Below are positions 972 through 19,190 of a stretch of 33,445 bases of DNA, one piece after another. Each line of letters opens with the position of its first letter. Within the stretch, counting starts at the first letter, position 1. The notes under the pieces were generated by a model that saw only the letters and a program-made list of their open reading frames with translations, did no database searches and had not been told where the DNA came from. Source of the DNA: a virus (lineage: Duplodnaviria > Heunggongvirae > Uroviricota > Caudoviricetes); IMG/VR virus record IMGVR_UViG_3300045988_112031, positions 1-33,445 of that record; one strand, 5' to 3'. The position numbers and the translations under genes were made by a program.

Positions 972-2020
972 GAAATCGTCCCCAGAACCGCCAGTTCATT
1001 TTTTGCAATGGAGATATTGTCCGCCGGTGCAAGCAACTGATGGCTGTATTCCCCGTTCGCACCGGAAATCGCTTCACTGATACGTGACACCTTCAGTTCT
1101 CCCTGCGGATAACCATCACGCAGCAGGAACGAACGCAACTCGGCGGTGATGGCAGCCCGTATTTCCGGTGTGTCCGGCGTCACGCGGATATGAAAATCCA
1201 CTTTATGCGCCACCGGCCTGAACACATACAAATCAGAGCCTGCCACCGGGGCCAGTGGCCAGATATGTTGTCTTGCCGCCGTTTCCGTTGATTCTTCCGG
1301 AATGGGATTAATCAGGTCACTGCCGGCAATCATCACACCGACAGTTCCCGTTCCCATCCAGTGACGGTATGTCCATGCGCGGGTAATGCCGGGCACTTCT
1401 TTAGCCCAGACGACATAGTCCCCGTCAGCCCCGCCCTGCGGCGTCCAGTAATACCGCTCAATGACGCGGGCGCGCCACGTTTCCAGATCTTCAGTATCGA
1501 ATCCGCCAGTCAGGGTATCTGCAACACCGGAAGACGGCAGACCATTCACCGGCGTGACCAGGATTAATGCCGTACCGTCGTCAGCGTTACCGACCTCGCC
1601 TGCACTTGAGCAGGCGATCGGCACGCGCAGGACACCACCGGAGCTGGTTGCATCGGCAGTTGCCGTGTACTGAACCAGGTCATCGCGCTGAATAACACTC
1701 CCAGCGGTCACCTTCAGGCCATCGCTGACACCTTCCCAGCGCATATACCCGCTGGCAGCCGTGGCCCCCTTGCGCGGACACCGTTTCATCGCAGCATGTC
1801 GCGCCAGCCAGGACTCATCGCACAGGTCAGGCAGCATGTTCATTGCCAGATAATCGATGTACCCGTAAACCGTATGCAGCGCCGCCGCATACACCTTTGC
1901 CCGCACGTCTTCGCCCATGCGCCGGAGCGTGTCGCTGACGTCCAGCCTGGCGAATAAATCGTTACGGAGCATACTGATATTTTCTGCCAGCGTCGGGCGC
2001 TGAAATTCACTGTCCGCCAT
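962..2020 (-). CDS. baseplate J-like protein (Mu gp47-like)
   Basis: 352 aa; position and size match baseplate J of Mu-like contractile tails; overlaps neighbours by a few nt (operon coupling). Confidence 0.65.
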
Positions 2021-2980: not shown

Positions 2981-4059
2981 CAGAACGGGTCCTCCTGTAC
3001 TCTGGCTTTTTTCTTTTTCCGCGCGCCGGGGGCTTCGGGTTCAGGCAGATAAGCATCAGGTGGGCCGACACGGATTTCCGTCAGGGTTCCGTTCTGGTCC
3101 TGAGTAAACGTGACTTCCGAGACAAGCAGTTCGGTATTGTCGAAACCACAGACCGGATCGAAGACAATCACCCGCTGGTTGGGCTGCCACAGCGTACCGT
3201 TACCCTGTCGCCAGCCCTGCACCACATAGGTGGTTTCATCCGTCCGCGCCGCCCGTTGTCGGGCTTCAAAGTCAGCACGCGCAATACAGCCTGCCCCCGT
3301 GGCCTGCCCTGTCTGCCTGATATACATCGGACGGTAACGGGCAATAAATGCGTCCTCTGTGCGGGCCCGCAGCGCGGTGGTGGTGGCCTCACCGAAATCA
3401 TCGTCGTTTCCGGCACGCTGCCCCGCCACCTGGTAAACTGAAAACCGCTCCCGGATACTCTTCTCCGTATCACAGGAAAGGATATTTTCCCCAAGTACCA
3501 GCGCGGTATGTGCCCGCGTTGAGCCAATACCGCCAATCACCAGCCTGCCGTGCGGGTCGTCGTAAGCCAGCGCCTGCTGCTGACCGAGTATTTTGTTGAT
3601 TACCTCAATCACCGTTTCACCGTGATCAGACTGAACATCAGGAATAACACCCGACGGCGCACCGCTGTTCACCACCTCAATGCCGAAAGGCGCAGCAAGC
3701 GCCTGCGCAATCTGCACCAGCGAGCGTCCGTTAAACTGTGTCGGTTCGGCTGCACAGTCAATCAGGTCAGCCGTCAGACTACGTCCGGCAATACCGGTGC
3801 TGACCGAACGGGCATCGTACCGAACGGGCGTCGCCTCCACCCAGCCGGTGATCACCAGCTCATCACCAATCAGCACTTCCACTTTTGAACCGTTTTTAAT
3901 GCGCGGCTGAAGCGTGGTGATACCCTCATCTCCCGGCCACTGGCGAGTGATCTCCACACTGAAATCCCGCGCCAGCCGTTCAATACCGGCACCGATGCGC
4001 ACCGATGTCCAGCCATTCCACTCCCGGCCATTTACCCGTAGCGTGACGTTATCGTTCAT
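2980..4059 (-). CDS. baseplate hub / tail protein (Mu gp44, P-like)
   Basis: 359 aa directly downstream of the DNA-circulation gene, as in Mu (N then P); lysine-rich C-terminus. Confidence 0.5.
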   Translation of the reverse strand: MNDNVTLRVNGREWNGWTSVRIGAGIERLARDFSVEITRQWPGDEGITTLQPRIKNGSKVEVLIGDELVITGWVEATPVRYDARSVSTGIAGRSLTADLIDCAAEPTQFNGRSLVQIAQALAAPFGIEVVNSGAPSGVIPDVQSDHGETVIEVINKILGQQQALAYDDPHGRLVIGGIGSTRAHTALVLGENILSCDTEKSIRERFSVYQVAGQRAGNDDDFGEATTTALRARTEDAFIARYRPMYIRQTGQATGAGCIARADFEARQRAARTDETTYVVQGWRQGNGTLWQPNQRVIVFDPVCGFDNTELLVSEVTFTQDQNGTLTEIRVGPPDAYLPEPEAPGARKKKKARVQEDPF

Positions 4060-5390
4060 TGCACTGGCACCTTCAGAGGGATCACCGGCACAAAGCCGGG
4101 ATGCGTAATGGCATTACGCCGGATAATGTCCGCGTCACGCGCCGCGTTATCAAACCAGGTCGCCGCCAGCACCAGCGCGGGTAAAACCTCATCCGGCGTG
4201 CGCTGAATGATCCGTGCAGACTGTTCAAGGCGCGTGTTGATATCCGCATTCAGATCTGCTTTCACCCGGCGCAGCGCAAGAAACAGCGCATCACTGGTTG
4301 TACGGGACAACTCCTTATCAATTGCCGTATTCAGTGTGTCGCGAATGTCAGTCAGTTCTTCCCACGTCGGCAGGTCAACTGTGTTTTTCACCGCCGGTGC
4401 ATTGTTCAGTGCCGGATGCGTGACGGAAGGCCAGCCAGTGCTCTGCGCAGGTGTTGTTGCCTGCCCCACTGCGGCATTCTGCATCACCGCGGAAGTTGTT
4501 GGCGCAGGCAATCGGGTGACGGCATACGCCGCTTCGCTGATTGCGGTCGTACGAAGGGTGCTGGCAACCACGTTACGCTGCTGCGTAGCCGTGGCGGTGG
4601 TTTTACTGTCCGTTTTCCAGACGCCGCGCGGTTGCAGATCGCTGCCGAGGCTGACACCGGAAAGCGTTTTGATCATGGCGACCAGGTCGCTGGCGTTACC
4701 ATAAAGGCGTTTCCCGGTACGCCACATTTTCTGCACCTGCTCAACGAAATTTTTGCCTGACGATGGCGGCGGCAGAAGTACCGAGATATCCCCCTGCAAC
4801 AGCCTGGCGGCATCCGATACGGCAGAATCCACCACTTTCATCGCATCAGAAACATACCCAAGCATTGTGCTGGCATTACCGACGACGTCGTTCTGCACAA
4901 AATCTGCCACGCCATCGATACTGAAACTACTGAAACTGTCACTGATGCAGTCATCCAGTGCAGAACAGGATGACATCAGCGTCTGCGCCGTCGCCGCACC
5001 TGATGTGGGGTAAGAGAGTTCTCCCGCTTCGACAAACTTCAGGTCAAAGCGGACAATACGCCCTTCACTCTTCGATGTGCTGACCCGAACCTCTCCGTCA
5101 ACACAGACTTTCAGCTCACCGTAAGTCGGATGGACAAGCGTGCCGGGACCGGGTTTATTCAGCGCGTCAATCAGGCGATCGCGCTGGTCAAAGCAGTCAT
5201 CTCCCACCACATAAGCCGTGATGGACGGGCGGAAAGTGATTTTCCCCAGGTCTTCGGTATAGGGTTTGTCGCGGTTCGGGTATTCATGTGTTTCCACACG
5301 GCGACCGGTTCCCGCACTTTCTTCTTCAACCTTAAACGGCACACCTCGAAATGACGCATCCTGAAGCCTGTCTTTCCACGTCATATACAC
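4056..5390 (-). CDS. DNA circulation protein (Mu N / gp43-like)
   Basis: 444 aa; N-terminus WKDRLQDASFRGVPFKVEEESAGTGRRVETHEYPNRDKPYTEDLG matches the recalled signature of the Mu DNA-circulation N-terminal domain. Confidence 0.7.
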   Translation of the reverse strand: MYMTWKDRLQDASFRGVPFKVEEESAGTGRRVETHEYPNRDKPYTEDLGKITFRPSITAYVVGDDCFDQRDRLIDALNKPGPGTLVHPTYGELKVCVDGEVRVSTSKSEGRIVRFDLKFVEAGELSYPTSGAATAQTLMSSCSALDDCISDSFSSFSIDGVADFVQNDVVGNASTMLGYVSDAMKVVDSAVSDAARLLQGDISVLLPPPSSGKNFVEQVQKMWRTGKRLYGNASDLVAMIKTLSGVSLGSDLQPRGVWKTDSKTTATATQQRNVVASTLRTTAISEAAYAVTRLPAPTTSAVMQNAAVGQATTPAQSTGWPSVTHPALNNAPAVKNTVDLPTWEELTDIRDTLNTAIDKELSRTTSDALFLALRRVKADLNADINTRLEQSARIIQRTPDEVLPALVLAATWFDNAARDADIIRRNAITHPGFVPVIPLKVPVQ

Positions 5391-5396
5391 TCCGAA

Positions 5397-5425
5397 AATA
5401 AAAAAGCCACCTATTAGAAGGTGGC
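5397..5425 (-). terminator. intrinsic terminator downstream of the tail-operon moron
   Basis: Minus-strand reading: GCCACC-loop-GGTGGC hairpin followed by a run of T (plus strand shows the A-run then the hairpin). Lies between the moron stop and the DNA-circulation gene. Coordinates approximate. Confidence 0.6.
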
Positions 5426-5445
5426 CTTGTAATGAATTTTATTAA

Positions 5446-5976
5446 TTAGCGAGTCAGAAACAACGAATCTTTATACTTTTGCTGTTGTTCATTTAAATAC
5501 TTAGCTGTTTCATCGCTGGCAAATGGAAATATTACCGTATTTTTAGGCATGGTAATTTCTTTTTTGTCCAGCGTCAGAGTAAACATAGGAACATACTGAG
5601 CAGAGTAACGCACCGCAGAAACGAGCTCTAGTTTAGACTCTTCAATAACACTTAAATTATCCAGGCTAACTTTCTCTTCATCTTTTTTCTTTGACGCATT
5701 TAAAGTTTTTATTACTTTATTTAATTTCTCCTGAAAATCCTCCTTAAAGTTTTCAGGATTGCCGTCGACAACAAGAATCTGTTCACCCTGATTATCTGGA
5801 AAAATAATCTTTGCACTTATCAATTTATTTTCTTTATAAACATCACCAAGTTTTATGGCTCCTCCAGATAACTGAATAATATGTTCATCTTTAAAGGAGA
5901 TGTTGCCAGAGATTATGAGAGATGAAAAAATAGCCGCTGCTCCAAGAATTACACTTGCTGTGATATAGCCTTTCAT
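5446..5976 (-). CDS. moron-encoded membrane-anchored hypothetical protein (candidate superinfection exclusion protein)
   Basis: 176 aa; N-terminal hydrophobic segment MKGYITASVILGAAAIFSSLIISG (signal anchor or signal peptide) then a K/E-rich soluble domain; visibly AT-rich compared with flanking tail genes; followed by its own terminator. Confidence 0.6.
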   Translation of the reverse strand: MKGYITASVILGAAAIFSSLIISGNISFKDEHIIQLSGGAIKLGDVYKENKLISAKIIFPDNQGEQILVVDGNPENFKEDFQEKLNKVIKTLNASKKKDEEKVSLDNLSVIEESKLELVSAVRYSAQYVPMFTLTLDKKEITMPKNTVIFPFASDETAKYLNEQQQKYKDSLFLTR

Positions 5977-6067
5977 TTTTCGCCTATTAACATTTTTCTA
6001 AATGTGCATTAATTCTATCACTCTATTTATGACTTACAACCAGCAAAACCTGTGAGGGGAATCCTGG

Positions 6068-7900
6068 CTACCAAAATCGGGTATAGCCAACATCGTGATT
6101 TATATCAATGCCACTGGAGCGTGTTTCCGTAACCCGCATACCTGATGGCATATTTATAAATGATACCTTGATCTCACCATCAACTTTTGGCGCGGTAGCT
6201 TTATTAATCATGAAAGGATTCGGGCCTGTGGCACCGGAGGCGTTGTTTGCCTGAGCCGGCTCCACCTCCGGATAAGGAGTGTATCCCCGTGGCGGTATTC
6301 CCGTCCCATAAGCATCATAAGCACCCGCGCCCCACTGCGCCGAGTTAATGGCATCGACCGTGTCACCGGAACTGTCGGTAAACCATTCAATAATCGGCTT
6401 CAGCTTATCCCACATATCCTGAAACCACTTAACAACCGGTCCCCAGTTATTGATCACCATCCCCAGCGGCGACCAGGCAAAAACCTTCTTCAGAAGTTCC
6501 CAGCCAGCCTCAAAATAAGGACTAATGGTTTCCCAGAGTTTCTTAAAATAAGGTCCGACAACATCCCAGTTAGTGATAATTAATCCCGCAGCCAGGGCAA
6601 TCGCCGTCGCAATCATGCCAATCGGCGTCATCGACATGATCCTGCTGACGATACTGATGGCACTGCCCACGCCCATCAATCCCAGTTTCAGAATCGCAAG
6701 ACCGGCAGCAAGCCCGACGACGCCGCGAATAACCCGGGGATTTTCATCCGCAAACTTCGTGAATTTTTCCCCTAACTCCCCCAGCCATTGCGTGATATTT
6801 TTGGCGTCACCAGAAAATGCGCCGCCAATAGCCGCAAGGCCGTTAGTTGCGGTCCCCGTCATTGCCTCCCACAGGTTGGACAGCGTACCAAGCTGTGCCT
6901 GAACACGTTTATTCAGGCTGGCCTGTTTATTCATCTTCTGCTGGATCTGATCGTAGCCATCCTTTCCTTTATCGATCAGCGCATTGACCACCTGAAGGGT
7001 TTCGGCATCATCACCAAACATTGCCTTAAGTACACCAGTTCGTTTAACGTCGGTCAGTTTTCGCAGCTTTGCCAGTTGCCTGAACATGTTATCAAGACCG
7101 CCAAAACTCCCTTTGCCATCAGTAAAATCGAGCTGTACCCCGAGTTTCTGACGGGCCATGACTTTATTGACGTCCCTGATTTTCTTAACGCTTAATCCGG
7201 ACTGGATAACTTTTCGCAGGGCGTTACCTGCCGACTCCCCGTTCATCCCCATCTGATCCATCATGACGCTGATGGGGGCAAGGCTCTGTGCAGCCTGAAG
7301 ACCGTCCTTGTTCACCATCTTCAGAACAGAACTGGTTTTAGTGAAGAAGGACAACATGTTGGTATCGTCAACGCCCAGATAAAACGCCTTCTGGATAGTG
7401 TCGAACAGCCCCATCATGTCTTCTGACGCCGTTCCGGTAGCATCCTGCATCTTTGCAGCAAACTCAGCAGCCGCTTCCGGTGTTTTTTTCAGTTGTACCG
7501 CAAGATAAGCTGTCGCTTTACCCACACCGCCAAGAATGTTTTCTGCCGGGATCCCCTGACGCACCAGCATCTGCATCATGTTCTGGAAATCAGCCGTTGT
7601 ACCGGGTAGCTGGTTACCCAGACCAATAGCCAGTTTATTGATGTCCTGAAAGCTCTTTCCGACCTCACCGTTCGCATCCATCATGGCAACTTTCAGCCCG
7701 GTGGCGGCGTTTTCCTGATCGGCATAAGATTTCAGGGAAAGCGTCAGCCCCGCTGCCAGTCCGCCACCAAGCGCCAGCCCACCCTGTGACGCTTCTTCCG
7801 CCTGGCGTTTAAATCCCCGGATTTTCTTTTGCATTTTCGACAGCGCGGGAGAAAGCCTGTCGACACCGGTGATCAACGCCTTAAGCTCAAATTCAGCCAT
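6068..7900 (-). CDS. tail tape measure protein
   Basis: 610 aa; Ala/Gly-rich helical N-terminus, hydrophobic central segments, W-rich C-terminus; preceded by the chaperone gene pair with a frameshift site. Confidence 0.85.
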   Translation of the reverse strand: MAEFELKALITGVDRLSPALSKMQKKIRGFKRQAEEASQGGLALGGGLAAGLTLSLKSYADQENAATGLKVAMMDANGEVGKSFQDINKLAIGLGNQLPGTTADFQNMMQMLVRQGIPAENILGGVGKATAYLAVQLKKTPEAAAEFAAKMQDATGTASEDMMGLFDTIQKAFYLGVDDTNMLSFFTKTSSVLKMVNKDGLQAAQSLAPISVMMDQMGMNGESAGNALRKVIQSGLSVKKIRDVNKVMARQKLGVQLDFTDGKGSFGGLDNMFRQLAKLRKLTDVKRTGVLKAMFGDDAETLQVVNALIDKGKDGYDQIQQKMNKQASLNKRVQAQLGTLSNLWEAMTGTATNGLAAIGGAFSGDAKNITQWLGELGEKFTKFADENPRVIRGVVGLAAGLAILKLGLMGVGSAISIVSRIMSMTPIGMIATAIALAAGLIITNWDVVGPYFKKLWETISPYFEAGWELLKKVFAWSPLGMVINNWGPVVKWFQDMWDKLKPIIEWFTDSSGDTVDAINSAQWGAGAYDAYGTGIPPRGYTPYPEVEPAQANNASGATGPNPFMINKATAPKVDGEIKVSFINMPSGMRVTETRSSGIDINHDVGYTRFW

Positions 7901-18239: not shown

Positions 18240-18578
18240 ATGATAAAAATGATTAACTGTACTGCTTCCAATTGTGGCGTTGGATACGTTTTTGGCAAAG
18301 GCGTTGATGCTGAGCTAATCAATAGTCACGCAAGAGCATGTAAAATCGGCTTTGTGCAAGCAGGGAATGAAAAAGAATGGTCAATACTGTTGGAAAAGTT
18401 GCTAACCAAAAAAGCTGATTTTGAGTCTTTACTGACTGTATGTGAAACTGTTAATTCAGAAGATAAAAAAAACGTCATATCCAAGTCCAATTTATTTGAA
18501 TATTTATCTCATTTTGCAAATGCTACAACTGTTTATACCTTTCTCGAGGGGTTAGTGAACTCTCTTTTAGCCAAATAA
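18240..18578 (+). CDS. moron-encoded hypothetical protein (112 aa), opposite strand to the late operon
   Basis: AT-rich cassette; AAGGA Shine-Dalgarno about 9 nt upstream; AT-rich upstream region; followed by a hairpin terminator. No family recognised. Confidence 0.55.
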   Translation: MIKMINCTASNCGVGYVFGKGVDAELINSHARACKIGFVQAGNEKEWSILLEKLLTKKADFESLLTVCETVNSEDKKNVISKSNLFEYLSHFANATTVYTFLEGLVNSLLAK

Positions 18579-18620: not shown

Positions 18621-18676
18621 AAAAAGCTATACACCTACTTAAAAGAGTCATTATATTTGTGTATAGCTCGTTTTTC
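18621..18676. terminator. bidirectional hairpin terminator between the convergent moron and spanin genes
   Basis: 10-bp inverted repeat AGCTATACAC / GTGTATAGCT with a roughly 24-nt loop, flanked by an A-run 5' and a T-run 3' (serves both strands). Coordinates approximate. Confidence 0.5.
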
Positions 18677-18913
18677 TTCATGCCTTCTAATATGAGACTT
18701 ATCTAAATTACAACTCCCTAACGCGGACAACAGTTTTACATTCAAATCCAAACTTTCACCATACGTCAGCGGATTGGGTATAAAAGGTACTGGAGTATCA
18801 GAAGTCAGGCTGGTTGGCAGTAGTACCGCCGGTGTATTCACGTAAACTGTCCGCGTACTTCCGCAACCGGTCAGCAGCGGTAGCAGGCACAGGACGTGAA
18901 GCGCAATCATCAT
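18635..18913 (-). CDS. o-spanin (Rz1-like outer-membrane lipoprotein), overlapping Rz in the +1 frame
   Basis: Track ORF 18635-18979; the internal Met gives MMIALHVLCLLPLLTGC with an LTGC lipobox, then a Pro-rich region; begins inside Rz and runs about 160 nt past the Rz stop into the AT-rich insert. Confidence 0.5.
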   Translation of the reverse strand: MMIALHVLCLLPLLTGCGSTRTVYVNTPAVLLPTSLTSDTPVPFIPNPLTYGESLDLNVKLLSALGSCNLDKSHIRRHEEKRAIHKYNDSFK

Positions 18914-19190
18914 TCGCAATAGCCACTTTGATATCTTCCTGGGTTCTCTGTGACTCCAGTGCGATCTGCTGTTTTGCATGTTGATTCGCCTCCTGAATGA
19001 TGTTCGTTATTGCCATAGTACGCAGAACATTCTCGGTGATAGCCTCAGTAGAATCAGCTCGCTGTTCCGCAGCGTCAGCACGCTTCTGCTCCTCCAGAAA
19101 CTTTCCATAATAGTGATTCGCTGACCAGACAAGACCACCAGCAACACAAGCAATAAACGTTAAAATGAGCGCCAAATAACTTATCTTCAT
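18798..19190 (-). CDS. i-spanin (Rz-like)
   Basis: 130 aa; N-terminal TM helix then coiled-coil-like region; immediately downstream of the endolysin. Confidence 0.65.
   Translation of the reverse strand: MKISYLALILTFIACVAGGLVWSANHYYGKFLEEQKRADAAEQRADSTEAITENVLRTMAITNIIQEANQHAKQQIALESQRTQEDIKVAIANDDCASRPVPATAADRLRKYADSLREYTGGTTANQPDF

Follow-up and report, generated by a model that had tools for sequence, protein, structure and literature searches.

The T4 proteins Imm and Sp reside in the inner membrane and prevent genome delivery once adsorption has taken place. The inner-membrane protein SieA of phage P22 acts at the same stage, and is one of several phage-encoded injection blockers that have been described (PMC10883804). 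Two morons of late operons are also known to exclude phages. HK97 gp15, whose gene is located between the tail chaperone and tape-measure genes, stops genome entry without masking the receptor (PMC3594210), and Tab of phage JBD26 is a moron of the late structural operon that is expressed constitutively from the prophage and acts against phages through a function connected with the tape measure (PMC10884400). The 33,445-nucleotide stretch of viral DNA analyzed here (IMG/VR record IMGVR_UViG_3300045988_112031, referred to below as the window) belongs to an SfV/SfI/SfII-like temperate myophage, a prophage of E. coli, with a Mu-like tail, and carries at positions 5403-6067 on the minus strand an accessory cassette (moron) between the genes for the tail tape-measure protein and the baseplate hub. 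The product of the cassette, a 176-residue member of the PHROG 5485 family encoded at 5446-5976, is a candidate for prophage-encoded protection of the lysogen against incoming phages, a reading that draws on genomic context and to which we assign a probability of roughly 0.4. The moron architecture and an exported, tethered product are well supported, and the evidence for an anti-phage role is circumstantial.

The open reading frame (ORF) at 5446-5976 on the minus strand starts with ATG and is the sole frame of at least 50 residues within 5391-6067. Comparative evidence identifies it as a real gene under purifying selection rather than a chance ORF, because homologues exist and pairwise dN/dS values among the enterobacterial homologues are 0.04-0.22, which also argues that the gene is functional. 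It is flanked upstream by the tape-measure gene (6068-7900, minus strand; PF10145, phrog_28/17727) and downstream by a Mu gp43-like "DNA circulation" or baseplate hub gene (4056-5390, minus strand; PF07157 (DNA_circ_N), phrog_184), whose true start is likely the ATG at 5384, judging from annotated homologues. The slot lies between the tape-measure stop codon on one side and the ribosome binding site (RBS) of the hub gene on the other, and the bounds of the cassette are this stop codon and a U-tract shared with phages in which the slot is empty. A first-pass annotation of this DNA had the coordinates, strand and flanking genes right, and its description of an insert interrupting an otherwise Mu-syntenic tail module is borne out by SfV, SfI, SfII and 689R6, in which the tape-measure and hub genes are adjacent and no cassette is present. 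In alignments with SfV, SfII, 689R6 and SKA5, similarity breaks off precisely at two points, the stop codon of the tape-measure gene and the stem of the terminator. The AT-richness that had been remarked upon is likewise evident, with a GC content of 0.343 in the ORF (GC3 0.30) compared to 0.515 in the tape-measure gene (GC3 0.56) and 0.561 in the hub gene; the flanks have a GC content of 0.51-0.57, and in 300-nt sliding windows GC falls to 0.32-0.35. A base composition distinct from that of the neighbors was found here and at nine other loci of the family. The data thus support an optional, compositionally foreign cassette within an otherwise Mu/SfV-syntenic tail module.

The protein matches the PHROG 5485 profile over residues 1-176 of 176 (E = 3.8e-108), and distant relatives are likewise assigned to this family, whose function is not annotated. 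Further PHROG matches are to 34391 and, at chance level, to 15137; the latter, an "endonuclease" profile (E = 0.014), was rejected because it covers part of the exported domain and is not shared by relatives. An identical protein sequence is found on at least 1000 contigs, named hypothetical in all of them, and close homologues, which are 52-58% identical, come from Leclercia, Lelliottia and metagenomes. An exhaustive profile search yielded 79 cluster representatives (E ≤ 1e-3) of about 170-195 residues, including named members from Mangrovibacter, Vibrio species, Aeromonas caviae, Pseudomonas and Alkanindiges; PHROG 5485 is an unnamed gammaproteobacterial family. All full-length members have an N-terminal hydrophobic segment, followed directly by the motif G-x-V-x-L-G-x-V-Y-x-E; other family motifs are Y-x-S-E-x-x-P-x-F-x-L and an aromatic-aliphatic C-terminus. 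The 176-residue protein has no match in Pfam (E ≤ 0.1), NCBIfam or PADLOC, and the defence and candidate models of PADLOC-DB 2.0 match neither it nor four distant relatives. Pfam searches with 58 aligned family members gave scattered chance-level singletons and no shared domain, tblastn with three members returned no match among 50,697 deposited phage genomes, and a literature search by accessions and PHROG ids found no publication.

The first-pass annotation had described an N-terminal signal-anchor or signal peptide and a K/E-rich, periplasm-facing domain, and both descriptions agree with the present predictions. The Kyte-Doolittle 19-residue maximum of 2.08 falls at residues 4-22, in an uncharged stretch of about 19-20 residues with K2 on its N-terminal side, and the remainder of the protein is rich in charged residues (20 K, 14 E and 10 D in 149 residues; pI 5.6). 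There is no lipobox and no cysteine. An AlphaFold2 run with 12 close sequences reached a pLDDT of 63 and was replaced by one with a 58-sequence alignment (pLDDT 91.2, pTM 0.76), in which residues 2-23 form a helix followed by a linker of lower confidence. Together with hydropathy and conservation, this suggests an N-terminal membrane helix at codons 2-23 (5908-5973, minus strand), probably a type II signal-anchor. Codons 32-171 (5464-5883, minus strand) are predicted to form an alpha/beta periplasmic domain with six beta strands (residues 32-36, 39-44, 46-58, 67-72, 114-126 and 132-143) and two long helices (74-93 and 149-171). A profile search of solved-structure sequences found no relative, and the best match there, the ribosome-associated inhibitor YfiA (E = 0.7-0.8), was rejected as noise. 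An identity as an i-spanin (Rz-like) was also discarded, as the domain is alpha/beta with no coiled coil and separate Rz-like and LysC/Rz1-like genes are located at 18635-19190. A Foldseek search of predicted viral structures gave one significant match (E = 1.7e-6, probability 1.0), a 144-residue "Lipoprotein" of the virulent Pseudomonas phage ventosus. This protein, CNR37_00111, starts with MKRLLFLGITALLLTGC, a lipobox. Its hhalign alignment with the family profile (probability 72%, E = 3.3e-5) spans 132 columns and keeps the motifs in register. Since this remote relative has a lipobox instead of a helix, a tethered periplasmic domain looks like a family trait.

The layout of the N-terminal segment also resembles a cleavable Sec signal peptide that would leave the mature protein soluble in the periplasm, with an n-region MKG, an h-region YITASVILGAAAIF and a c-region SSLIIS; the invariant S23 at -1 and I/V at -3 fit a signal peptidase I site (I-x-S), and UniRef calls a Leclercia homologue "Secreted protein". 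However, the uncharged stretch of about 19-20 residues contains no helix breaker, the hydrophobic segment is conserved as much as the folded domain (A1 0.78, A4 0.42), which is unusual for signal peptides, and the remote ventosus homologue remains tethered through its lipobox. Cleavage therefore seems less likely, and a signal-anchor is favored because the long uncharged stretch is conserved like the folded domain; the segment is probably an uncleaved membrane anchor, with the periplasmic domain placed outside the inner membrane.

Of the known systems, HK97 gp15 resembles this locus in being an optional, compositionally distinct tail-operon cassette with its own terminator beside the tape-measure gene, and in encoding a predicted single-pass inner-membrane protein. 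The first-pass annotation had gone further and cited gp15 as a moron at this very position, which does not hold: the gene in the window follows the tape-measure gene and precedes the hub gene, in a slot other than that of gp15 (PMC3594210) and in a different type of phage, and its product is unrelated. While gp15 is a small siphophage protein of the YebO family, the protein described here has a folded periplasmic domain of about 150 residues and belongs to a contractile-tailed phage; no sequence similarity between the two was found, and neither YebO nor any other Pfam family matches the 176-residue protein or 58 members of its family. Among phages of Gram-positive bacteria, the Lactococcus protein Sie2009 and Ltp of the Streptococcus phage TP-J34 are likewise prophage-encoded and tethered, by a membrane or lipid anchor, outside the cytoplasmic membrane, where they block DNA injection. 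Both are similar to the 176-residue protein in size and in their N-terminal anchor. They are, however, encoded in lysogeny modules rather than tail operons, and no similarity in sequence or fold was detected. Ltp is overcome by changes in the tape measure (PMC10883804). Llp of T5 and Cor of phi80, N15 and HK022 are also envelope-tethered phage proteins with genetic linkage to tail or receptor-binding genes (for Cor, PMC3594210), but these are outer-membrane lipoproteins that inactivate the FhuA receptor, whereas for the 176-residue protein, which shares no homology with them, the inner membrane is the most likely site of tethering. SieA differs in being polytopic, with three transmembrane segments and a conserved motif in the cytoplasm, Imm and Sp are much smaller, and no Pfam or PHROG match connects any of the three to the 176-residue protein. 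Tab is an 83-residue cytoplasmic protein acting on tail assembly; a product that is exported and tethered, as predicted here, would therefore be unable to act on cytoplasmic tail assembly in the same way.

The contexts in which relatives are encoded argue for exclusion in that the family occupies classic moron or cargo slots in three types of phage. In SfV-like phages, the order of tape measure, family gene and hub recurs in Leclercia prophages, an IMG/VR contig (41% identity), Mangrovibacter (38%) and a metagenomic phage (30% by BLASTP). In an E217/Pam3-like myophage tail module (loci L031 and L032), a relative with 30% identity is positioned between the hub and spike genes, just upstream of the central spike gene. 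In the lambdoid loci L025 and L026, relatives with 33-35% identity lie immediately downstream of the antiterminator gene Q, followed by holin and lysozyme genes in L025 and by an IS200-like transposase and unassigned ORFs in L026. The family gene is AT-rich in every locus (0.34-0.42 compared to 0.45-0.58 around it), and a hairpin with a T-run follows it in all loci examined, non-tail ones included, except L024, where the next gene starts 13 nt past the stop codon, and L026, for which only 29 nt were examined for a hairpin. In Vibrio islands, copies adjoin an integrase and a SIR2-like gene or the PADLOC candidates PDC-S42 (E = 3e-130) and PDC-S07, and this proximity to defence-island candidates also favors an anti-phage role. 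Elsewhere, a stand-alone copy in Lelliottia adjoins icd with no phage genes within 8 kb, a Pseudomonas copy adjoins a resolvase and an integrase-related gene, and a copy on one metagenomic contig adjoins a TRAP transporter.

Some of these contexts would also suit a lysogenic-conversion factor that alters the physiology of the host envelope rather than excluding phages, for example by conferring resistance to colicins, tailocins or type VI secretion system effectors, stress tolerance or a role in host interaction. The topology and moron architecture fit such a factor just as well, its stand-alone copies are found beside metabolic genes (Lelliottia) and the TRAP transporter, no anti-phage homology was found, and selection is strongly purifying with no arms-race signature. 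On the other hand, all enterobacterial cases but one are prophage-borne, the Vibrio copies lie beside defence candidates, and an allelic cassette at the same junction is annotated as Sie-like. An envelope factor of this kind is possible, though we consider it rather unlikely.

The tape-measure/hub junction is itself a hot spot for cargo, at which four or more alternative cassettes occur. A census with the two flanks alone as query found them joined in 845 of 5,426 complete E. coli genomes, so that the junction is present in about 16% of them and the cassette under study in about 3%. Each cassette was counted with its own query because junction length cannot separate the types; length was discarded as a counter when the unrelated SKA5-type cassette proved to have the same span of about 1276 bp. 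The cassette under study occupies the junction in 174-179 genomes (181 matching records, 179 at ≥99% identity and 2 at 95-99%). An unrelated protein of 164-170 residues with a signal-peptide-like N-terminus (phrog_8976, as in phage SKA5) is found in 84-85 genomes, an N-terminally anchored OB-fold protein encoded on the opposite strand (phrog_8545, "superinfection exclusion Sie-like", E = 1.5e-49) in 54-79, and a 125-residue bacterial PH-domain protein (phrog_7115) in 24-28. Loci with alternative cassettes at this junction are L001 3176-3688, L043 1884-2378, L029 601-1047, L027 522-908 and L028 557-934. By subtraction, the remaining 480-510 or so genomes should mostly have an empty slot, and short-span junctions, as expected in that case, made up the majority of a 60-row sample. 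The match of an allelic cassette at the same E. coli junction to a "Sie-like" PHROG is a further point in favor of exclusion, as is the lipoprotein relative carried by the virulent phage ventosus, which recalls T5 Llp, T5 and ventosus both being virulent phages with such a lipoprotein. As a separate observation, 4 of 184 cassette matches in E. coli fall on plasmid-labelled records, and two copies are present in some genomes.

The intrinsic terminator that the first-pass annotation ascribed to the insert is present, although it is not peculiar to it. At 5392-5428 on the minus strand, a 10-bp GC-rich hairpin (5428-5403) begins 17 nt past the stop codon and is followed by UUUUUUAUUUU, with the U-tract at 5402-5392 abutting the GGAG RBS of the hub gene. 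The hairpin folds at -15.6 kcal/mol (z = -5.3), a stability not reached by any of 200 shuffled sequences. The empty-slot phages SfV, SfII and 689R6 also have a hairpin terminator at this junction, with an identical T-tract and a different stem, and the terminator is therefore a feature of the backbone as well as of the cassette. An Rfam search of 5200-6300 gave only sub-threshold leader-like matches, which are due to the terminator hairpin. Upstream of the ORF is a 91-nt AT-rich spacer, and a promoter-like site at 6012-6039 on the minus strand consists of TTGTAA (6039-6034), a 16-nt spacer and a TG-extended TAGAAT (6017-6012), with 9 of 12 matches plus the TG. A short inverted repeat, ACATTT-N4-AAATGT (5990-6005, minus strand), is positioned between the putative -10 element and the RBS and may be an operator or a chance occurrence in AT-rich DNA. 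The stand-alone chromosomal homologues in Lelliottia, Vibrio and Pseudomonas imply independent transcription.

In the mechanism that we infer for exclusion, the cassette would be transcribed in the lysogen from its own σ70-type promoter, and transcription would halt at the hairpin terminator just ahead of the baseplate hub gene. During lytic growth, a Q-antiterminated late transcript would run through the cassette; such read-through would be made possible by the Q antiterminator encoded in the window, which presumably overrides the intrinsic terminator inside the tail operon. The 176-residue product would be anchored in the inner membrane by its N-terminal helix, retained rather than cleaved, with the alpha/beta domain of about 150 residues in the periplasm, and would block incoming phages after adsorption by interfering with the tail tip, the tape measure or ejected proteins. 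Alternatively, its target could be a host envelope factor that an incoming phage needs to cross the periplasm and inner membrane.

Expression from the late transcript would also be compatible with a periplasmic accessory of the phage's own lytic cycle, which might prevent progeny from injecting into lysing cells or debris, like T5 Llp, or tune lysis or the peptidoglycan. Consistent with this, the gene is co-oriented inside the tail operon in two unrelated myophage tail modules, follows Q directly in lambdoid phages, is kept in the same slot down to 30% identity while tracking backbone divergence, and has a remote homologue in a virulent phage that lacks lysogeny. It is, however, missing from most SfV-like phages, among them SfV, SfI and SfII, which are viable isolates; non-phage copies exist, and a full lysis cassette, in which Rz and Rz1-like genes are separate, is already encoded in the window. 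A function in the lytic cycle is accordingly improbable. Still less credible is a virion structural or tail-assembly component, the role that the position of the gene between tape measure and hub in SfV-like modules, and between hub and spike in E217-like ones, would suggest. Such a component would not be expected to have an N-terminal export or anchor segment, to be absent from most related viable phages, to occur also in the Q-lysis slot and in non-phage islands, or to come with a foreign composition and its own terminator; we regard this role as very unlikely.

Percent identity to the window proteins was compared across five related SfV-like phages, L002, L007, L024, L030 and L033. In that order, identities of the 176-residue protein are 53, 53, 41, 38 and 30%, those of the hub 67, 71, 68, 57 and 44%, and those of the tape measure 36, 75, 34, 22 and 22%; the sheath is 74, 75, 68 and 62% identical in L002, L007, L030 and L033, respectively, and was not compared in L024. 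The identity of the 176-residue protein drops with backbone divergence, which suggests that the gene has long been an optional occupant of the slot and did not arrive recently. It does not follow the identity of the tape measure, and co-evolution with this adjacent gene was rejected, as the tape measure is 75% identical in L007 and 36% in L002 while the 176-residue protein is 53% identical in both.

Several results weigh against protection of the lysogen as the function of the cassette. Its identity ignores that of the tape measure, which disfavors tight co-evolution with the tape measure as a target, and the gene-wide dN/dS of 0.04-0.22 gives no arms-race signal. Searches of Pfam, PHROG, NCBIfam, PADLOC and structure databases found no homology to known exclusion or defence proteins. 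Three promoter-like matches were found where 2.8 are expected in shuffled sequences, which is no better than chance, and because the count does not exceed this expectation, a promoter belonging to the cassette is something we only infer. Defence-candidate neighbors are confined to two Vibrio loci, and the PDC families themselves await validation. Two or three SfV-like tail junctions are seen in some genomes that have a junction of cassette length with closely matching flanks; the presence of the cassette in these genomes is not confirmed, and if it were, exclusion of relatives would not be absolute.

The analysis defines an uncharacterized family, provides a confident model of its structure, for which no solved relative was found, and recognizes the junction as a multi-allelic cargo hot spot. 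A broader proposal, which we put forward tentatively and hold to be rather doubtful, is that PHROG 5485 is an unrecognized single-gene anti-phage module in which a periplasmic domain with its own fold, tethered by a transmembrane helix or a lipid anchor, would keep phages, contractile-tailed ones in particular, from delivering their genomes. Across Gammaproteobacteria, the module would reside both in defence islands and in the cargo slots of prophage tail modules and Q-lysis regions, and the SfV-like tape-measure/hub junction would be a defence hot spot comparable to those of P2 and P4, with at least four interchangeable cargos. If exclusion is the true function, the protein would represent a new family and fold among the envelope-level injection blockers, of which few are known; the examples found for long-tailed phages (HK97 gp15, Ltp and Sie2009) all come from non-contractile siphophages. 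The junction of a very common E. coli prophage type would then be a place to seek more small defence genes. Even without a proven function, the family gains a high-confidence structural model, a taxonomic range and a set of genomic contexts.

Other genes with the appearance of cargo were observed in the window and in related loci. Besides Q, the window encodes two holins, an endolysin, the Rz and Rz1-like genes, TerL and a CI-like repressor, and between Q (21730-22482) and a holin gene (20069-20455) lies an AT-rich ORF of 213 residues (20616-21257, minus strand; GC about 0.35-0.43). This position is the classic lambdoid cargo slot that holds a PHROG 5485 relative in other phages; neither Pfam nor PHROG matches the ORF, and its one PADLOC match is at chance level. 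A possible third cargo gene, located between the Rz/Rz1-like genes and the terminase region and antisense to the late genes, is an AT-rich ORF of 112 residues (18240-18578, plus strand; GC 0.32-0.40) with no match in Pfam, PHROG or PADLOC. In the E217/Pam3-like loci L031 and L032, a small YdiH-family ORF (1452-1646, minus strand), oriented oppositely and flanked by the tube and chaperone genes, is likely another tail-module cargo. Finally, in the Leclercia locus L002 (10013-11808), and also in L003-L005, two extra ORFs of about 503-520 and 94 residues with no Pfam match occupy the gap between the hub and gp44-like genes; neither the window nor L007 has them, suggesting that the tail module contains a second variable site.

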